A stretch of 64,000 bases of DNA from Harriotta raleighana (taxonomy: Eukaryota), in contig JBNZDD010013678.1 in NCBI GenBank assembly GCA_050575255.1, positions 3,901,405 to 3,965,404 of the forward strand, given 5' to 3'. Numbering within the stretch: position 1 is the stretch's first letter; each line of letters starts with the position of its first letter. The position numbers and the translations under genes were made by a program. The notes beneath the pieces were generated by a model. The model did not search any database and was not told the origin of the DNA. It worked only from the letters and a program-made list of their open reading frames with translations. Shown here piece by piece: positions 9,127 through 47,541 of the stretch.

Positions 9127-9742
9127 ATGAACTCTTACCTGGAATACGTTTCCAGTGCAGATATTTTGACTTTCCCTCCCAAGTTCGGCCACAGCAGCCC
9201 CCCCCCGCCAGTGTCCCTTCAGCAGTGCTCCAGAGAAGGGCGCCGTTTCGCAGGTGGACTCACAAGTGATCATCCATCTCCCAGCCATCATCACCACCAC
9301 CTTCATCATCACCATCATCATCAACGCCATCACCTGCATCAGCCGGTGCCTTCCAGCCTCGAACTTCCCTACGATTCCGCTGCACCCGTCGATGTCAACC
9401 TCTTACCCCTGAGTAGTTTGGGCTACGATTTTCCTTTAGCTGCTAATCAGGAGTTGGATGACAGTGGAGGTTTGGTCCCATACGCGACCTCTGTTTACTC
9501 AGGAAACGCATCTTTTCCCCTGACTGAACGCCAGCAGGAATACAGCACCTCACTGGGTGACCAGGGAAAATATCCAACGTATGGCAAGGAGTACCCGAAC
9601 TTGTACACGGGACATTATCAGAGTCTCTCCCCGTCTGAGGGCAGCTATCACCAGGGGCCGGAATCGCCCACCACAGAGAGAGGCGCCGCCACTGCATATA
9701 CTTTCGAGTGGATGAAAGTGAAGCGGAATCATTCTAAAACAG
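9127..9742 (+). CDS. HOXD1: Homeobox protein Hox-D1, exon 1
   Basis: MNSYLEYV start and TFEWMKVKRN PG1 hexapeptide region; donor ACAG|GTCAGT, phase 1. Confidence 0.95.
9286..9339 (+). repeat. CAT/CAC poly-histidine coding repeat
   Basis: Encodes HHHHHLHHHHHHQRHHLH. Confidence 0.9.
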
Positions 9743-10211
9743 GTCAGTCTCGTCCCCATTTCCTAATCTGTGTCTATCAGAGCTCGTTCCACGCCTTTTC
9801 TCCGGTAAGTTAGTGAAGCTGCCAGGTGTTATGTGCGTATTTAAAACACCGGAACTGTGAACTTGTGTTTGCAGAGAACGCCTGTTTCTGGCTTGTAAAT
9901 TCAGTGAGGGTGAGTGGGGTGTGAGGGGGTTGCATTAACTCTTTCATCAGCAGAATGCCATGATGTTGAAATAATGTGGGGGTGAATGGAGGTAGTTAGT
10001 GGAACCTGTATCTTGCCTGTGGTTTGATACACTACCTCATCGGTCGTGTTCTCATCGTTTGGAAGTAAAGATGAGGATTCAATCGTGTGTTGTTGAGTGT
10101 AGATCCCAATTTCAGATCGTAAGTAAACAGCCTAGTCATGGTAAAGAGTGAAACTTGCTGGGTTCCCACTCAATAACACTTTATAACTTATGCTTTTTTT
10201 TGATTTTGTAG

Positions 10212-10570
10212 CGAAAACAGCCGAATATGGGATTGCCAGCACACCCAGCACAGTCCGCACTAATTTCTCCACCAAACAGCTGACCGAATTGGAGAAGGAA
10301 TTCCACTTTAATAAGTATTTGACTCGAGCCCGCCGCGTGGAGATAGCAAACGCTCTTCTACTCAACGAGACACAGGTGAAGATTTGGTTCCAGAACCGCA
10401 GAATGAAACAGAAGAAGAGGGAGAGAGAAGGTCTGCTGGCCAGTCTGGCTTCTCTGGGCTGCACCCAGGACTCGCCATCCGGAGAGAGTTCGGACAAGTC
10501 GGACACTACCTCGCCTTTGCCTTCCCCTACTCCATACAGCTCAACACCAACTCCAAGCTCAGTGTTGTGA
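10212..10570 (+). CDS. HOXD1: Homeobox protein Hox-D1, exon 2 (homeobox about 10244-10423)
   Basis: Acceptor TTTTGTAG|CG; encodes [60 protein letters not shown] (NFST and KKREREG are Hoxd1-like). Spliced CDS is 975 nt. Confidence 0.95.
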
Positions 10571-11411
10571 CCTTATCAAACTGTAACAAAAGCTTCGGAG
10601 AATCAAGCTTTCAATTCCAAATTCAAAAGAAACAAAAGCCACGAAATGCGTTAATGCAATCTCCAGGCCCTAAAGTACTGCAATCACTTTAGCACACTTG
10701 ACTATTTGGGGTACAGATTCTACCTAGGTATATATATATATATGTGCAGGCTGCTATTTGTTTATATTTTGTGAGTTTTTTTAAATTTCTGTGACTACTG
10801 AATTGGGTCATGATCAATGTATTTACCTTCACCTGGAATGTTATATGAAAAAACGATGTTAAAAAGCAAAAGACAAACGTTATCTATCACCCAACTGATG
10901 TTACAAGACTTTTTTTTCTTGACACGAATTTGCACAGACAACAAGTCAGTCTTTGCAAGTAGAAGAGCCACACAAAAAAGAACAGATTAAAGGCTGCAAC
11001 ATCTTCTATTTACTGCATTGCTAGAATTGCTGCTTTGTATTTAGTAGATTGTTTTCTATTGATTTGTGTGGTGATGACAACGATGAATGTAACTTAGCTT
11101 GTTCGACTCGACTCCCAAGAATTAATGGACTTTGCACAATTTATGCCTCAGGTTGAAAGATTCTGGTTGCTGCTATGTAACACTGTGCCTATCTAACGCT
11201 GCAATCTTTCACTTGTAAACTATGCTAAGTAGTTATCCCACCTCTGTTTACACTGTCTGTTAGGGCTGAGGAGGTTATTGTTTATCTGCTCTATTGTGAA
11301 ATTGAGTTGGAAGTAAAACTCTGTATTTTCCATCTAGGAAAAAAGTTTGTCAGCTTTAATTATGAATGTTTACGATTATATGCAACAGTGGGAACAAAAG
11401 AACAAATTTTG

Positions 11412-11417
11412 AATAAA
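11412..11417 (+). terminator. Candidate polyadenylation signal of HoxD1
   Basis: AATAAA about 840 nt after the stop; a second AATAAA lies near 11480. Confidence 0.4.
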
Positions 11418-13566
11418 AAAACAGAACACATTTTGTCATTTTGATCAGTAGCGCAATTCCATGCAGCTTTAGTGTAGGCAATAAAACAGTGCTGTTCCTT
11501 TCCAATCGAAACCGTTATTTTCACTCCACTTTAAATCAATTAGCGAGTGATTTTCTGACCAATAGTCTTAAAGATTCAACCCAACTATGTGATGGGATGT
11601 CTGAACTAAACCCATGCAATTGAAGGATTCTGCAGCTCTGAGGCTCATTGATATGATTGTTATTATTATCACTTCATATTCCTCAAAGGGTCCTTGAAGA
11701 TTATGCTTAAGTGATGCACTGAAGTCTTTACACTTGACACTTTAATCCACAACTATATTCTCAAACTATCAATAGGAAGTGAAGCCAAGGAAACGGATCG
11801 GATCTTTGCATTATTAACTAATTCTAATGAGTCTATTTTGATTGAACATCTTTGCTCAGCAGCTTTCTACTTAGCAATCAATACTGGAAAAAAACATGTA
11901 TCTGCCTACTAAGCAGTTCGAGGTGGACATTTCAATTTAAGTGTGTGTTTCTGCTCTGGTTTGATTTTAAACAAGTTTCAGATATGGCTTTAGGCATAAG
12001 ACTCACTTTCACAAGGAAGGGAAGTAACTCAAAGGACACCCATCACTCTTAAAAAAAATGAACCAACTACTAAAAAAAACCTTTAATTGTATTAGATAGA
12101 ACTCTTAATAACTCATTGCATCGAGAATTCCTTTAATAATGTCCACTAATGGATAATCACTGCATTATTCTGTCCTCAAGACAAAGTTACCTTATCTAAA
12201 AATGAGTGTACATGGCTTTTAATTTGATTCAAGGCTCTCATAGCCTTTCGACCAGATTACTTGTAATGGCTTCATAATCCATTTGAACTCTTGTTACAAG
12301 TTATTCTGACTCCATTTTTACAAATAATATAGACTACCACTACAAGTAATAATAAATTGTTGGACTGGCCTCACCAGTTTCTTATTCAGGCCGAGTCCTC
12401 ATTAAAACATACATGCTTAAATGTGTTTGTTGAACTGACATACAGTATAATGTTGGAAAATATACACTATGGTAGTGTAACATGTCACTGTGAAATGAAA
12501 TACGCGTTTAGCTCGTTTCATCAGCTTTAGTCTTTGGTTCATTGGAAAAGTTGGGGTTTCAGGGTCATCTTAATCGCAATTAATGCGATTTTCGGCAAAG
12601 ACGTTTTACACTTCAATGTGTGTGTGAGTAATAGAAGCAGATCAATGTTAAAAGACTTCGGCATTAACGGTGGTATATGCAAAGATCAAACGTATAAAGC
12701 AAATAGATTTGTGCCGGAAGTGACTTTTTAAAGCAATACCGGGGAGGGAGGTGGGGAGGGAGAGAGAGTGGGGGAGGGGAGGGTTTGGTTGCACAACAGA
12801 AAGAGTCAGTATTTTCTCTCAGATGTTTCCAACATTTGGTCCTAACAGCTCCGTGATAATGACAGTTCCACTAAAAATAACACACAGCAGTCTTGGGAGT
12901 TAGCGGTGTTTCAAAGAAATGCTGAGGTCGTAAAATTCATAATGACCTCCTTGGGAATCGGCTCTGAGATCTTTTGATATGGAATTTACGATTCTTTGAT
13001 GGTGATTCTCAACCGATACCCAGTGCATATTCTAGACCTCGAGAAACTGCACCCTACATATATTTATAAAAAATACTGTTTGCATTTACTTTGCTTTAAG
13101 ACTCGCACAACCTACAGGCCAGAAGATTGGTTTAAAAGCTTTATACATATTAGATATATCAAGAAACATCGTAAGTAACTGATGCTAGCTTACACCCCCC
13201 AGGAAATGACATCTCCTGGTGCGATTGCATGTTATAAACTTGCAGGTCTATTGTCGTTTCGCTTTCTGTGAGGCGCCTATTGTTTCCCTTTTATGTTATC
13301 ATACCTCTGATCCTAGTTGTGATTACTCCCTAAAGTCTCTGAAGACGTGGGGGGAGGCCAGGGAGTTTTATTAGCACAATACGAAAACTGTTCGTAACTG
13401 TGGCTGTATTGTGAGGGTTCACAACAGTAGCTTTGCGCTTGTTTGATATTCAGTTTTACTTCTGCCTGGAGCGGAAGGACTATTCAATATTTACTCTGCC
13501 TGCAAAAAGGGGTTGTGGAAGGGTTAGCCAGAGAAGACAACCCCACCGCCCCTCCCTCAGGAATTA

Positions 13567-13583
13567 GGTTCACTGAAAGTTCA
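13567..13583 (+). promoter_or_regulatory. DR5 retinoic acid response element 3' of HoxD1
   Basis: GGTTCA ctgaa AGTTCA; differs by one spacer base from the RARb2/Hoxa1 3' RARE (GGTTCAccgaaAGTTCA). Confidence 0.85.
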
Positions 13584-13783
13584 TGGAAATTGATCCAGGT
13601 TGATCTTCTGAAACCCTTCTTGCACGATTTAATGTACGGATCATTGTATTTTTTGAAATATATATTTTTTTTTAAAAAAAAGGAAATGTATGCTTATCTC
13701 CCCCTTTCCCCCAAACCAGATTTCCATTTCACCATCAGCACATGAAGTCGGTATATTCAAGTCTTATCCTTATATAGAGTTAA

Positions 13784-13796
13784 AGGTCAAAGTTCA
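13784..13796 (+). promoter_or_regulatory. DR1 nuclear receptor element
   Basis: AGGTCA a AGTTCA, 200 bp downstream of the DR5. Confidence 0.6.
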
Positions 13797-16082
13797 CCTT
13801 AGTACTGCATAAATGAATATTTAATGTTATTTTATGGCTGACGCACAATTGATATGCGGCTGCATAATGTCACGTATCACCTATGGGGCTTTCTCATCGT
13901 GTCGCTAATCTTACTGCCTGTTCTTAAATGTAAAACATCAGATTTCCCTCTTAAATTGTTGAACGGTGGACAGATAATTGAGTTATTTCGATATCTACAG
14001 TATATGTTAGCTAGATAAATAGAGGGAACAGTGAGTTGCGACTGTAAAGAAATGTAATATTGTACTGCAGTAGTAGAAACGTGGGTGAAAATAATCCCCT
14101 TTGAGGCATGGTTTCAGCAACATTAATATTATTCCTTAACAGTCGCTCTGTTTTGTGTACATTTATTATTTTGACCTCGAAACGGGTAATGATTGTAAGT
14201 TAGCAAGAGAGTTCCTTAAAATATGAATAACTGACAGTTTATGGCAGCGTTTCAAATTCCAGGAAAGTTATCCTATTAGAATTGTATGATTCCTGCAAAT
14301 AACGCATGGCCCTTGATAGCAATACAAAACCGTTGCCTCCCTATATTCCATGCTAGCGATTAATGTCAGTCCTGATATTTCTTCAGTGTCGCAAATCGAA
14401 TCACATTCTTCGTAGCCTTTTTTTAAATTTCTGGGGTCTGTTGCTCAGAGCATCAAGTGACACTTGACTCAATCAAACTACAGTATTTATAATAGTTTCA
14501 GTTAAAGCTTCAGTGCAACCCCTGTGTTTGATACTCACACTTCAAGCATTTGTAGGAGAGAAAAAAAATTCAACACATTACTGTACATGTTTTAGCTGGA
14601 TCCGCCATATCCATTGTGGCTTTGGTGGCATTCACTGGACTTCCAAGTTTGTCTTCGGTTACTCGAGACATGTTTGCCCTTTAAAGTTCATTATCTCACA
14701 AAGTGTTCAGCTCCAGGGGACAACGCTTACTTTCTACCGTGAACATTTATCACAAACACATAAGTACAAATTCAGTCATCTCTGCTGATCCCGTTGTAGG
14801 TATATTAATATCATTTAAGAGGAGCGAAGCGGAAGGCAACGCATCTGGCTGTTTGAACAATAAAGAGCTTAACTGTGATACAATGGTCAATCCAAAAACT
14901 TCTCTGTATTAAGAAAAAAAATTGAATGCACTTTTAAAATCGCCTATTGGAGGTACAGTAGTTAAAGAAGATAAGTTTGTCTTGGAATTCATAAGTTTCA
15001 AACCCGATTTACAATGGAACTCTATTGTAAATTTGACATGAAAACAACAGTGTCAGTCAAACTTGCAAAATAAATCGAATGTACAAAAAAAATTGCTGCT
15101 GATAGGCAAAGGCCTTCTCAGCATACAAAAGAGGGTTTTCGACAAGACACGGTCGTATAGCTTGGGTTCCAGCTTCAAATCTATGTGGCATTGTAAGCGA
15201 TATAAAATTCCTCCTGCCACACTCTAGTATTGATTCAGCACTGAAATTGTAATATAAGAGCAGTTTCAAACCAATGGTCCGATACTGAATCGTTTTTTTA
15301 AATGTAATAGAGATGACTTCGGACACAGGGCAATGCTGCAGGGTGTAAATTGAAGCAATGCAATAGCGAGTTTGAATTTTCCAGCTTCCAATTGATTTCT
15401 GGTATTGTATAAAAACAGCTTCAAACCGTTAATATTTGGAGTAACACCGAGTTCTCCGCAGGCAACATGATCTGATATTGTATCGAATAAAATCCCTTAA
15501 GATGTGAGCAGACATAATAGAAGACGTTCCCCCCCAAAAAGAAGATTGTTAGAAGGCAAGGGTTATTCCACTTGCAATGCCTTATTGCAGCTAAAAGGTT
15601 CACTGAGAGCAAAACAGTTGAAATGTAACTGTTCCAATTCTATTTTGAAACCAATCACTTAAGTCATCACATTGAAGACAATTGCAAGAGATGTGTGGAT
15701 TAGTTTGAAAGACTGTATAGCGACTCGCTGGTATGAATCTGTTATATTATCAAATTAGCTGAAACTTGGAAGCCATGTGCAAACGGTACTGAATAAACGC
15801 AACTTTTGTCATTCAGAACATGAAAGCTGATTGATATACGCATCAATTGTGTTTACTCTTGGACGGGACATACACTTTCTCACATCAATGAATGGGAATG
15901 AAGGAAATAATCTCCATTGATCTTATTTGTAACAGGTTCTCTCCTGTGCTGCCTCGATTTAAATGAATTAACTTAATCCAAGTGTTAAACCATGGGTACA
16001 TTTGCTTTGCACGACTCACCTGACCAGACCTCTTGGTGTATTTAGTTAAATAGTATTTGACCGAGCCCAGACCACTATCTTA

Positions 16083-16388
16083 TAATAAATAATAATCCTT
16101 GAATTTGATATCCATGTCTTCCATGTCATCGAGATGCCTCAAAACGCCTCACATTATAATGTGAATTGACTGTATATTTGCAGCAAAACGTGGCAGCCAA
16201 TTGCGTGCAAAAGAGTCCCTCGAGCAGTCGTGGATTGAAGTGATCAATTTGTTACTTATTGTTTTATTGAGGCATTATTGTCAGGCGTGTGGAGTAAGGG
16301 AATTTGCCCCAGGTTTCGCCCTGACTGGAATCGAACCCAGGTCTCTCGCTTGAGAGGCGAGTGCTCTAACCACTGAGCTCCGGAACTC
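16083..16388 (-). mobile_element. tRNA-headed SINE (partial Deu-like body, L2-type tail)
   Basis: Minus strand has an A box (AGCTCAGTGGTTAGAGC) and B box (GGTTCGATTCC); body and (TTA)n-type tail are shared with many copies in the window. Confidence 0.85.
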
Positions 16389-16509
16389 TACGCACCTGAC
16401 CTGTGAACGTCAGGTACATAGAATGCTCGGTAGATATTTTTATGTACATTGCTGCCCCTTTAGTTTTTTGTATGACACATCAGCGTTCAATTACCTCGCA
16501 TTTTTGCTT

Positions 16510-23800: not shown

Positions 23801-25126
23801 AATTTTAATAACAATGACAAGAAAATTACAGTTATAGAGTGCCTTTAACATCACATTTGAAAGAATACATCTCTTACAATGCTGCACCCCAGAACTATAT
23901 TTGACGTATGTAGAAAATCTGATGCACTAATTCCTTTATCAATGGGATATTGATTTTGTTTAAATTTCATGTTGTATTATTCTTTTCCTGAGATCAAAGA
24001 TTAAAACTTCTACTTTCCCTTCTTTCCCAGATGTCCAAGGCACAACAAGTTGATTGTTATTTTAAATAAAAGGCGTTTTAAGCATTTTATAACTTTTCTA
24101 AAGTTAATAGCAATCATGGTCACTCGATGATTCTAGGTGGGGTTTGGACAATGACATTTCTCTAAGAACTGAAACCCATCCCAAACTTTTACCAAGTATT
24201 ATTCTATTTTTCTAATACAGTAGTATTAATTAATTGATGAAATTCCCCCAAGATAACATAAATTATTTTGCTCAATGATTCTGAAAAAAGTGAACATCTT
24301 TAACTTTACATTTGCAAATTACAAATTTCCCTAAAATAATTGAGTTGTTTAATCCAATACCCCTTTTTATCAAGAGACCAAAACTGAAACATTCCTGGCT
24401 ATTGATATCTTATTCCCTTAATACTGTATTTTATATCTGCAATGTTAATTGTAAGGCCTAAAATGATCCTAGAATTTTATTCTTTGGTTTCATCATATCT
24501 TTCTCTATCTCTTACAACACAAGTTATCTATGTCATGAGTTATTGTTAATTAAAATCAAGTTTTAAGCAATGGCAACATATCCAGATTAATTGCATGATG
24601 AAAGTATTGATTTTAGAATTAAATCTGCTTGTCTCACTAAATTATACTGTCTATCTTCCAGCACTTGTGATGCAATTTACTTAAAAATAATAATTGACTG
24701 CAGTACTCTCTTGCCAATAGGGTAAGATAACAAGGCTACTATAAAGATATTGAAGATGATATTTTAGCTTGTGATTAGTTTGCAGCATATTCAAAGAGAT
24801 ATCCATTAATAGCTAACCTCAAAATACATAGTGTACATCTGACTGTCTCCAGCCTGACTACTGCCCTAAATCAGGGTTAAGATTTGTGAATGACTGACTA
24901 AATCGGGATTTTGAAATTCAACTGCCAAGTAATATTTCATTTTCTTAAGAATAAAATAATTAAAGAGAATGTAAAGCTAACTCCTAAATTGTACTCATTT
25001 AGATTCCTTTTCTTACTTAGCAGCAACATGCTTAAATCAGAATGTACATTATTTTAAAAACATGAACCAGCTCAGATTTACATTGTCTGTGAAACTGTTT
25101 ACATTTTCTTTTATTTAATAGTTATA

Positions 25127-25432
25127 TTATTATTATTTAATAATAATAGTCCTTGCATTTGATATAGCACTTTTCACTTCTTCTGGATGTCTCAAAGAGC
25201 TTCACAGAATATACCGTTTTTATACTGTATATATGTGGGCGGAACACGGCAGCCAAATGTGCACAGCAGTGTCCCACAAACAGTCGTGGATTGAAATGAC
25301 CAATTTTTTTTTTAGGTTTTATTATCAGGCATGTGGAGTTTGGAAACTTGCCCAGGTTTTGCCCTGCCGGGAATTGAACCCAGATCTCTCACTTGCAAGA
25401 TAAGTGCTCTAACCTCTGAGCTACAGGATTCC
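25127..25432 (-). mobile_element. tRNA-headed SINE
   Basis: Full tail, body and head, homologous to 16083-16388. Confidence 0.85.
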
Positions 25433-26674
25433 ATGATTACATAAAGGGTGGCAAATTCAGCAAGTGTTTGATAATCCACTTGAGATATAAACATGATTTT
25501 AATCTTACTGATTTCTAGTAAAGTAACGGCAATTGAATGCCATCAAGAACCCATTGGATTTCCTTCCTTATGTTGTTCCTGGATGTATCAAACTATGCTG
25601 TTTTNTATTTTAAATAAAAGGCGTTTTAAGCATTTTATAACTTTTCTAAAGTTAATAGCAATCATGGTCACTCGATGATTCTAGGTGGGGTTTGGACAAT
25701 GACATTTCTCTAAGAACTGAAACCCATCCCAAACTTTTACCAAGTATTATTCTATTTTTCTAATACAGTAGTATTAATTAATTGATGAAATTCCCCCAAG
25801 ATAACATAAATTATTTTGCTCAATGATTCTGAAAAAAGTGAACATCTTTAACTTTACATTTGCAAATTACAAATTTCCCTAAAATAATTGAGTTGTTTAA
25901 TCCAATACCCCTTTTTATCAAGAGACCAAAACTGAAACATTCCTGGCTATTGATATCTTATTCCCTTAATACTGTATTTTATATCTGCAATGTTAATTGT
26001 AAGGCCTAAAATGATCCTAGAATTTTATTCTTTGGTTTCATCATATCTTTCTCTATCTCTTACAACACAAGTTATCTATGTCATGAGTTATTGTTAATTA
26101 AAATCAAGTTTTAAGCAATGGCAACATATCCAGATTAATTGCATGATGAAAGTATTGATTTTAGAATTAAATCTGCTTGTCTCACTAAATTATACTGTCT
26201 ATCTTCCAGCACTTGTGATGCAATTTACTTAAAAATAATAATTGACTGCAGTACTCTCTTGCCAATAGGGTAAGATAACAAGGCTACTATAAAGATATTG
26301 AAGATGATATTTTAGCTTGTGATTAGTTTGCAGCATATTCAAAGAGATATCCATTAATAGCTAACCTCAAAATACATAGTGTACATCTGACTGTCTCCAG
26401 CCTGACTACTGCCCTAAATCAGGGTTAAGATTTGTGAATGACTGACTAAATCGGGATTTTGAAATTCAACTGCCAAGTAATATTTCATTTTCTTAAGAAT
26501 AAAATAATTAAAGAGAATGTAAAGCTAACTCCTAAATTGTACTCATTTAGATTCCTTTTCTTACTTAGCAGCAACATGCTTAAATCAGAATGTACATTAT
26601 TTTAAAAACATGAACCAGCTCAGATTTACATTGTCTGTGAAACTGTTTACATTTTCTTTTATTTAATAGTTATA

Positions 26675-26980
26675 TTATTATTATTTAATAATAATAGTCC
26701 TTGCATTTGATATAGCACTTTTCACTTCTTCTGGATGTCTCAAAGAGCTTCACAGAATATACCGTTTTTATACTGTATATATGTGGGCGGAACACGGCAG
26801 CCAAATGTGCACAGCAGTGTCCCACAAACAGTCGTGGATTGAAATGACCAATTTTTTTTTTAGGTTTTATTATCAGGCATGTGGAGTTTGGAAACTTGCC
26901 CAGGTTTTGCCCTGCCGGGAATTGAACCCAGATCTCTCACTTGCAAGATAAGTGCTCTAACCTCTGAGCTACAGGATTCC
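26675..26980 (-). mobile_element. tRNA-headed SINE (duplicate of 25127-25432)
   Basis: Lies inside the second copy of the duplication. Confidence 0.8.
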
Positions 26981-27214
26981 ATGATTACATAAAGGGTGGC
27001 AAATTCAGCAAGTGTTTGATAATCCACTTGAGATATAAACATGATTTTAATCTTACTGATTTCTAGTAAAGTAACGGCAATTGAATGCCATCAAGAACCC
27101 ATTGGATTTCCTTCCTTATGTTGTTCCTGGATGTATCAAACTATGCTGTTTTCCCTAAGTACAATGTAAGGTTAGATGCTTCTAACAGTTTCAATTTCTA
27201 CCTGCAACAAGCTC

Positions 27215-29227: not shown

Positions 29228-29500
29228 TTAATCCATGCATTTGATATTGCGCTTTTCACAACTTCTAGATGTCTCAAAGCGCATCATAGAAAATAATGTA
29301 AAGTGAATTGACTGTATATCCCCTTTCCCTCCACGTCTCCAACTCCAGCTTGGGTCTGAAATAATGACCTTGGGATGACCTTCTGATGTGAAAGGCTCTA
29401 TAGAAGTGTAAGTTTGTTGTTGTTGTAATTTGTGGGCACGCCAATTGCGCACAGCAGTGTCCCAATGAGCATTTGTGGATTGAAATTACCAATTTATTAT
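29228..29500 (-). mobile_element. SINE interrupted by an oppositely oriented L2 tail (about 29319-29426)
   Basis: SINE body breaks after GACTGTATA and resumes at TTTGTGGGC; the insert ends GATGTGAAAGGCTCTATAGAAGTGTAAGT(TTG)n. Confidence 0.75.
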
Positions 29501-44857: not shown

Positions 44858-47541
44858 GTAAGTCTGCCGCTGAATCAAATTCCTGGAGGGGCTGTTTTGT
44901 GCGGTGCCATGGCAACATATCTTAGCCTGTAGCCAATAAACAGCACCATAATGTGACCTACCTCTGGTCACAAGCTATTCTTGTCACATGCTTTTGTGAT
45001 GCTATGTTCATTCTCCTTTTTCAATCTTGTTTATTTGTATTGTAAATGACTGTAAACTTGCAGTTATTTGAGAATTTCCATGGCAAAAACACGCGAGTTA
45101 GCAATATGCCACAGAGGATATTATGACCTTAAATCTGAAAGAGCTATTACCTACTGATTATTCCAGCTGTGTACAGTTAGTCAAGCAAATAAGAATGAGC
45201 AGCTGTGCACTTACCTAGCACTTAGTTTTCATGACATGAGAAATTTAATAGAAGGATGCCTTGCTTCAGACATTGCTGGGATGGTTATTTACACTATTTC
45301 TACTTTGAGTGTGAATTGGAAGATGGGTAAGAGGCATGCTCTCAGAATTGATTTTTGGATTTTAGCAGTATGCATGTGATTCTCTTGGTCTTAAAGGATT
45401 CCCTTTGTGCCTGAACACATGTGAATAAAAGCTCAGAGACCTCTATGTTCAAAGAGACCTGCAATTCTTTTGTGATACATTTTATCATATGGATGCAGAT
45501 GAGGCTTTTGTTCATACGTTTCACCTCATCTATTACCCTAAGGCTGCCTGTGAAGGCAATGAAGACTGAATCCATTCAAAGGAACCATGACGGAGCCTGC
45601 TGTTACTCTGAACTGTATGTGAACTGGCCTTAACAGCAGGTTTTATGCATATTGGCCAAACATTTTTTCTCTGGTCCTTTCTTACCAAAATATGAAACAA
45701 AATACTATTTATGTATGTTTCCATAAAAAATTGTAGTCCTTTAAGTTTTATTATTGCTTCCCCCACCCTCCTCCATATACGTACACAATCCTTATCGTTT
45801 TTTTTAAATTTTACTACTTGTATCACTCCAGAGAGAAAATAAAATGCTAAGCAAGCTATAGCTGAATGGTAGCTACTTGAGTATGAATGAATATTCTGAG
45901 TTATTCTTTATTTGTCTTTAGGGAAATAGAGTATTTATCTCTTAACTTTCCTTCATGAGAGAATTGGTGGGTGAAATTGATGAGAGTATACGTTCTGTGT
46001 TTGTTGGAACAATTGAGCTTTTCTCACACTGTTCTTTACGATCTTACTGCTGGTCTGCACTCATGATTCCATGGTGGGAGACTTTTAGTACTGTATTGAG
46101 AATATGAAGGGAAAGGAAAATCTGAAGTGCAGGCCACCCTAAACTCTCTCCAGCTGCTCTCAACAGCAGATTTCGGAATAGCATTGGTAGAGATAAGAGT
46201 TCAGATCACAATTATTTGAATGTAATATGAGGTATTGAGTATAGAAGAACCAGTTGGAGGTATCATTTGCTTTGGATGAAAATGTTCAAATTGATTCAAT
46301 GATTAACATAACTGTAGCTTTTGTAAATGTCCTCAGATTGGGATAGCCTATTGGTGCTTTGCACTTTGACTTCTGAAATCAAGGCAATTTTTGGAGATGC
46401 TGTTCAAGATTGCTTATTGCCCCCCCCCCCCCGCCCACCCCTGGTAAATATAGGGCAAACCATCTGTGGTTGGTGTTGCATAACTTAGTAAAGGCCGACA
46501 TCCTAGCATCTAGTGGCAGAATTGTGAAATATTGGCAGGAAAACTGAAATGCACTAAATAGAGAATAACGTAAGTTTAATAACCAGATTGAGGAACAGAA
46601 ACCAAACAAGATAATAGGCAGGGTTACACCAAGCAACATTGAAATAAAACATCTTAAATCATACTGAAGGAAACAGGATAACACAATGCTTACAAAAGTA
46701 CTTGTGAATGAAATATTGAGGAGAAATAGAGTCAAAAAGATTTTGGCAGAAACTTAGAATGATCCAGAGTGGAAACTTGCGATTAAAAGCAATCGATAGA
46801 CTAGCCTACGTTTTTTCTTGGTGAAGTGCCCTCATTGAAGTGGATTTTAAATGAGAGAAAATAAAAGAGTGGAAAAAATGACCAGAATAGTGAATTACCC
46901 TAATTACCAAGGTATTCACAAGGTTGTGTTTAACTGTAGTTGCTGAGTGCTAACATAAGGGACATGAACCAATAGAAAATGGGGAGAGGAGATTTGGAGG
47001 AAGAGGTCAGAGTCCCACTCAGATTCAAATATTTTTCTTTCCTAACTGGAATTATTAACCATCAATCTGTCAGCTAAACGCCAGCTCAGTATTAAACATC
47101 ACACCAGATGTTTTTCCTTTCCTGAAGACATTGTCTTGTATTGAGATGCATGTAGATATAGCACAGAGAGAAAGACAAAAACAATTTGGAGTGCAGCTTT
47201 TAAGAAAAGTACAACAACTTTTTTTTAAAAAATGTTAAGCAAGAACAGTTCACGTGCAACTAGATAGAGTCATATGCACACTTAACAATGTTATAAGGGC
47301 TAGGCAGGAAGAGTTTTTGTCTGTTCAGTTACATACAAAAGGCGTTTAGTTAATTATCTAATATATTCACTACTTAGTGGAGATAGAGCAGATCCATTTT
47401 TGAACTGTTATTATTAAATAACAGCCCTTATTTATTTTGTGATTATAATTATACATATTTAACATGATTCTTTTGTGAGAGGTGCTCCTATTTTAGAGTA
47501 AAAATATTATAATAACCTAAATGATCTTCTTTTACACTTAG

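Follow-up and report, generated by a model that had tools for sequence, protein, structure and literature searches.

A three-block module behind HoxD1 of Harriotta raleighana is likely the D-cluster copy of an ancestral retinoic acid-responsive Hox1 enhancer

Is HoxD1 followed by an enhancer of the same family as those known behind Hoxa1 and Hoxb1, responding to retinoic acid (RA), and if so, how old is it? We addressed this question in a stretch of 64,000 nucleotides from Harriotta raleighana (contig JBNZDD010013678.1), further called the window, which contains the HoxD1 gene. An earlier inspection of its letters, the original prediction, had described a retinoic acid response element (RARE) of the Hoxa1/RARb type about 3 kb downstream of HoxD1, namely a direct repeat with a 5-bp spacer (DR5) nearly identical, spacer included, to the known element. 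About 200 bp further it placed a direct repeat with a 1-bp spacer (DR1), and it took the element to be older than the Hox cluster duplications. Both repeats are present on the + strand (Table 1), the DR5 lies 2997 bp past the HoxD1 stop codon, the near identity amounts to 16 of 17 bases, and the proposed age agrees with the DR5 and DR1 blocks that we found downstream of both other Hox1 paralogues of this genome. Two more strongly conserved blocks had been missed (13484-13496 and 13809-13826). With them the repeats form a three-block module, 13484-13826, which we consider, with a probability of about 75%, to be the HoxD copy of a module inherited from the pre-duplication vertebrate Hox cluster, likely acting as an RA-responsive 3' enhancer of HoxD1. 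Judged by its sequence, it belongs to the known family of Hoxa1/Hoxb1 3' RARE enhancers, as the representative on cluster D.

The DR5 consists of two RGKTCA half-sites in direct repeat, and the mouse Hoxa1 and Rarb RAREs, with which it was compared, both read GGTTCA CCGAA AGTTCA (PMC7259794 Table 2). It shares with the Hoxa1 and Hoxb1 enhancers of the RAIDR5 type the position a few kb 3' of a Hox1 gene and the Hoxa1-type DR5, and with the A and B copies of its own genome the flanking conserved blocks. Perfect RGKTCA DR5s number three in the window, as compared to 0.14 expected, a count reached in none of 100 shuffled sequences; the two others are on the - strand, at 29365-29381, between copies of an interspersed repeat, and at 45609-45625. 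The DR1 is the only one in the window (0.22 expected) and is not significant by itself, because 20 of 100 shuffles also reach one.

The evidence that carries our interpretation comes from the other Hox clusters of the same genome. All three Hox1 genes found have the three blocks behind them in the same order and strand. Besides HoxD1, these are a gene on contig C13542, whose homeodomain matches that of the solved HOX-B1 chain 1b72 and which we therefore call HoxB1-like, and a gene on C13656, called HoxA1-like on the basis of elimination and of a Hox3/4 RARE which equals the printed mouse HoxA one. The distance from stop codon to DR5 is 2997 bp in D, 2979 bp in A and 5050 bp in B, and the DR1 starts 217, 209 and 248 bp after the DR5 start, respectively. 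Common to the three copies are 14 of 17 bases of the DR5, every half-site of which remains RGKTCA, 11 of 13 bases of the DR1 and 17 of 18 bases of an AT-rich motif following it; the differences between paralogues either preserve the half-site consensus or sit in spacers. BLAST of block 3 gave E values of 5e-11 (D-A) and 6e-8 (D-B). Local alignment of the module scored 65 (D-A) and 54 (D-B). Shuffled flanks, 200 and 100 in number, gave at most 31, and the highest score among 50 real control windows was 37. The alignment of Hox1 3' flanks that the original prediction had proposed, run within this one genome, places the module behind A, B and D and none in the C stretch searched.

Searching the 1.1 Gb genome for the combined DR1 and AT-rich pattern yielded four matches, one at D, one at B and two at A, and none for the reversed control; as the pattern was derived from these copies, the count shows specificity only. 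The two matches at A belong to a 707-bp, 100% identical repeat of the module on either side of a 1690-N gap (near C13656:1979047-1982150), likely one locus seen twice through assembly overlap. In the window itself, a 1547-bp exact tandem duplicate (24058-27152, across a single N at 25605) likely has the same kind of origin. The family pattern of the DR5 was matched five times genome-wide, four times at Hox1 flanks. The fifth site, AGTTCACTGAAAGTTCA (C13652:2344637-2344653), is not accompanied by the other blocks, and no Hox1 gene was noticed in the surrounding 19 kb examined. One could still hold that both repeats arose by chance in intergenic DNA that is rich in AT, since the DR1 alone turns up in a fifth of the shuffles and the two other DR5s of the window look incidental. 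This explanation is refuted by the three-way paralogy with its E values, the fixed 25-bp offset inside block 3 and the genome-wide uniqueness, and we give it practically no credence.

Table 1. Coordinates of the module and of related features. Positions refer to the window unless a contig is given.
Feature	Position	Strand	Remarks
Block 1, TCAATATTTACTC	13484..13496	+	83 bp before the DR5; all 13/13 bases shared by D, A and B
Block 2, DR5 RARE GGTTCActgaaAGTTCA = GGTTCA-CTGAA-AGTTCA	13567..13583	+	Pattern scan; 16/17 as in the mouse Hoxa1/Rarb RARE
Block 2 tail, GAAATTGATCCAG, then GGTTGA, a half-site-like hexamer	13586..13603	+	Alignment; less conserved
GAGTTA, proposed third half-site	13777..13782	+	Present, outside the shared module
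Block 3a, DR1 AGGTCAaAGTTCA = AGGTCA-A-AGTTCA	13784..13796	+	13/13 with the A copy, 11/13 with the B copy
Block 3b, AT-rich ATAAATGAATATTTAATG	13809..13826	+	18/18 with the A copy, 17/18 with the B copy
HoxD1 coding exon 1	9127..9742	+	Likely target gene; encodes a His tract and the FEWMK hexapeptide; followed by a GT donor at 9743 (from the sequence)
HoxD1 coding exon 2	10212..10570	+	Homeobox; stop TGA 10568-10570
DR5 upstream of Hox3, cluster A	C13656:2004829		Equals the printed mouse site
DR5 upstream of Hox3, cluster C	C13581:353209
DR5 upstream of Hox3, cluster D	C13678:3893375

On the C cluster, neither a HoxC1 homeobox nor a copy of the module was found in 150 kb after HoxC3 (C13581:359472-510000; 3886 N in 160 kb), and HoxC1 may be lost or unassembled in this genome; two other hexapeptide-like matches were rejected as HoxC1, having no homeobox nearby. 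In any two-round duplication tree, a set of three clusters out of four includes both sides of the first split, and therefore the module should be older than the first genome duplication. Later exchange of sequence between clusters is conceivable, and it would also be ancient.

Inside block 3, the AT-rich 18-mer begins 25 bp past the DR1 start in all three paralogues. The linker keeps its length of 12 bp in D, A and B with only 2 of 12 bases in common. Because the linker has changed in sequence but not in length, we read the DR1 and the AT-rich motif as one composite site, which may be previously undescribed. The 18-mer may be bound by a factor of homeodomain, POU or forkhead type. As for the DR1, it has the RGKTCA-N-RGKTCA form of a nuclear-receptor element, and human proteins bind the exact 13-mer AGGTCAAAGTTCA in vitro: on published protein-binding arrays it gave values of 7.9 for HNF4a, 35.0 for RXRa and 8.2 for COUP-TF2, and it stands on the sheet of ‘common’ binders of these three proteins (PMC3384313 supplement), in agreement with the RXR/COUP-TF/HNF4 input that the original prediction had suggested. 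The B variant of the DR1 reached 9.4 for HNF4, 38.5 for RXR and 13.2 for COUP-TF on one array probe (PMC3384313). More specialized types of DR1 do not fit: in place of the TC at positions 10-11 of the HNF4-specific motif (xxxxCAAAGTCCA; PMC3384313) there is TT in D and A and GT in B, and the 5' flanks GAGTTAA, TTGTTTC and TTTGGGA lack the AAACT-type extension of a PPAR response element (PMC2801013).

The degenerate third half-site GAGTTA, which had been proposed to precede the DR1, does occur in the D copy, but none of the seven positions before the DR1 is common to D, A and B, and it was rejected as a part of the old element. Block 1 lies at -83 (D), -90 (A) and -77 bp (B) from the DR5. By the forkhead consensus it may contain a forkhead-like core, and it possibly corresponds to a conserved element of the RAIDR5 enhancers in mouse. 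The corresponding block 2 tail in A and B reads GAAATTAATTCAG and GGGTCA.

Other organisms provide a further view on the module. Part of 13400-13900 is contained in 16 of 19 listed sequencing runs (7 studies, at least 5 organisms), four of which were compared. X2 showed no difference over 13200-13629, block 3 being outside its coverage, and may be the same species. Three other organisms, each from a different study, have contigs that cover the module: X5 spans 13200-14097 with 57 differing letters, X10 13361-14043 with 47 and X13 13274-13867 with 47. Among 40 of the 95 differences listed, none falls into the 89 block bases, where 4.7 would be expected (P 0.006, one organism); the listed differences reach 13961, and the remaining ones of X5 may mostly lie beyond this position. 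X5, X10 and X13 each give also a second short piece over block 3, and the loose ends of the X13 piece match the HoxA1 flank of the Harriotta genome. No RNA dataset was present among the listed runs containing the module, and a homologue search at longer length returned no match.

Several simpler origins of the conserved blocks were considered and dropped. A 104-aa stop-to-stop frame overlaps the module, but relatives have 1- and 2-bp deletions inside it, which does not suit a coding origin. No structured RNA matched Rfam over the module; the sole match within the searched 10500-16500 was tRNA-like (16322-16380, - strand, 40.8 bits), probably the head of a tRNA-derived short interspersed nuclear element. 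A repeat origin was dismissed because 13200-14100, searched by BLAST in 464 kb from the four clusters, matched nothing except itself and its counterparts at A and B. A 3' untranslated region seems improbable, the AATAAA signals at 11412 and 11480 being 2 kb upstream of the module.

Ligand-bound RXR-RAR on a DR5 activates transcription. In the mechanism that we propose, RA would switch on HoxD1 via the DR5 in early neural tube, mesoderm or gut, and a forkhead-type factor on block 1 would make the tissue competent to respond. An RXR-containing or orphan receptor (COUP-TF, HNF4) would occupy the DR1, with a partner on the AT-rich motif at fixed spacing. The DR1 would most likely damp or tissue-gate the RA response, a role as a further activating RARE being less likely. 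A review states that RXR-RAR activates on DR5 and not on DR1 (PMC2801013), whereas a purely damping role is made less likely by DR1s ending in A-AGTTCA near Nr2f1 and Nr2f2, which are classed as RA-activated enhancers (PMC7259794). We regard the sign of the DR1 effect as close to even. A wider proposal, tentative and in our estimation doubtful, is that the ancestral Hox1 RA enhancer was already bipartite before the first duplication, with an activating DR5 and, about 210-250 bp downstream, a DR1/AT composite (12-bp linker) serving as a nuclear-receptor brake or tissue gate, and that chimaeras retain this arrangement on three clusters.

HoxD1 is the likely target, and its identity is supported by a search with exon 1, which gave 17 relatives among 321 candidates, the best of them a holocephalan Hox-D1 (77%). 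Named shark and ray proteins, of which three carry the label Hox-A1-like in the source, follow with 53-69%, and the next relatives are amphibian and marsupial Hox-D1. This exon encodes a long histidine tract (9288-9340). A Hox2 gene precedes HoxD1 in the window, the HoxD2 frames being open at 543-2072, and the contig also has a Hox5 gene still further upstream; HoxD2 is reported as lost in most bony vertebrates (PMC3707753). The 1.1 Gb genome has four Hox-bearing contigs and three Hox1 homeoboxes (own-genome search, 150 of 180 candidates scored), and Hox3 was found on a cluster showing no Hox2 in the stretch examined. Elasmobranchs are reported to be without HoxC, while chimaeras retain it (PMC3707753), so that the Hox content of this genome points most likely to a chimaera. 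A metaxin neighbour did not confirm cluster D, none of three Tom37 matches being on the HoxD1 contig.

Given this setting, the module could be homologous and functional and still act mainly on HoxD2-D4 or on the opening of the 3' part of the cluster instead of HoxD1. Local as well as long-range action has been described for Hox RAREs (PMC8788451; PMC4510006), and this genome retains the open HoxD2 frame, 11.5 kb upstream of the DR5. We find such a target unlikely, as the distance to the Hox1 stop is kept in the three clusters, the C cluster, on which no module was found, is likewise one on which no Hox1 was found, and the mouse paralogue, the Hoxa1 3' DR5, is required for Hoxa1 in vivo, according to a knockout (PMC7259794). 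The scan that recovered the DR5s behind the Hox1 genes had a positive control, in that it also gave a DR5 upstream of Hox3 on clusters A, C and D (Table 1); the B-cluster stretch scanned starts too near Hox3 to include such a site. An additional DR5 was noticed between Hox5 and Hox4 on D (C13678:3870928). Far behind the Hox1 genes there are perfect DR5 and DR2 (2-bp spacer) sites about 50 and 65 kb after HoxA1 (C13656), and a DR2 about 56 kb after HoxB1 (C13542). The mouse RAR-bound Heater region is located about 50 kb from Hoxa1, roughly where the far sites of C13656 lie (PMC4510006).

Certain points weigh against reading the module as an RA-responsive HoxD1 enhancer. The RA function of the D copy in this species is predicted from sequence, and HoxD1 as its target is assumed from proximity. 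The DR5s at 29365 and 45609 are without paralogue in the stretches compared, so a perfect DR5 alone proves little. Small deletions occur in the block 2 tail in two other organisms, and the apparent constancy of the blocks in relatives was read from 40 of 95 differences and 12 of 39 indels listed. The B-variant DR1 was low on the second of its two array probes, with 1.9 for HNF4, 7.0 for RXR and 5.5 for COUP-TF (PMC3384313). Finally, two lists of functional or conserved Hox RAREs name Hoxa1, Hoxb1, Hoxa4, Hoxb4, Hoxb5 and Hoxd4 as functional and contain no Hoxd1 element (PMC4510006; PMC4009813 Table 1), therefore mammals may have lost the D copy or retain it in a weak form. A search of the PMC7259794 supplement also gave no Hoxd1 row, and we found no HoxD1 RARE in the open-access literature searched, key older papers lying outside it.

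The absence from these lists would suit a D copy that is a slowly decaying relic, or one kept for RA-independent receptor input via the DR1 and AT-rich motif, with a DR5 that no longer drives an RA response. The D spacer is indeed one base off the spacer of A, B and mouse, and conservation is higher in blocks 1 and 3b than in the DR5. Yet both D half-sites have stayed perfect since the split from A and B, though the flanks no longer align, and Xenopus hoxd1 behaves as a direct RA target, with a log2 fold change of 2.42 with RA and 2.22 with RA and cycloheximide (PMC6031401 Table S3); for these reasons we consider a relic quite improbable.

With this module, the argument so far made from position, with RAREs behind mouse and amphioxus Hox1, becomes a sequence-level three-way paralogy in one slowly evolving genome, and the whole enhancer layout, beyond the DR5, may be dated before the four-cluster duplications. 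It also offers a candidate element for the direct RA response of Xenopus hoxd1, for which no mapped one was found in the literature searched, suggests two further blocks for study in the well-known Hoxa1 and Hoxb1 enhancers, and provides a 35-bp signature for comparison with lamprey, hagfish and amphioxus.

Among the known systems, the Rarb promoter DR5 shares 16 of 17 bases with the D copy but is situated in the 5' untranslated region of Rarb, and this identity should reflect binding quality and not descent, because the sequence is a generic strong RARE. The amphioxus Hox1 gene has at its 3' end a DR5 that drives RA-dependent neural expression (Manzanares 2000 and Wada 2006, via PMC3227721). 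Its likeness to the D copy, as far as described in the literature searched, is in position and motif class. In the mouse Hoxb1 3' RAIDR5 enhancer, a DR5 located behind a Hox1 gene is joined by other conserved elements, just as the HoxB1-like gene of Harriotta has the three blocks 5.05 kb past its stop. Langston 1997 and Thompson 1998 reportedly named two or three conserved elements beside the RAREs when A and B were compared. The mouse Hoxa1 3' RARE is attributed to Langston and Gudas 1992 and Dupe 1997 (as cited in PMC4510006 and PMC7259794), and for Hoxa1 no DR1 is given in part 1 of 2 of the S3 table (PMC7259794). This DR5 (mm10 chr6:52153426-52153442) has 16 of 17 bases in common with the D copy and lies, like it, in 3' non-coding DNA behind a Hox1 gene, as does the own HoxA1 copy of the Harriotta genome, 2979 bp past the stop; the mouse site is an A-cluster element, whereas the one described here belongs to the D cluster.

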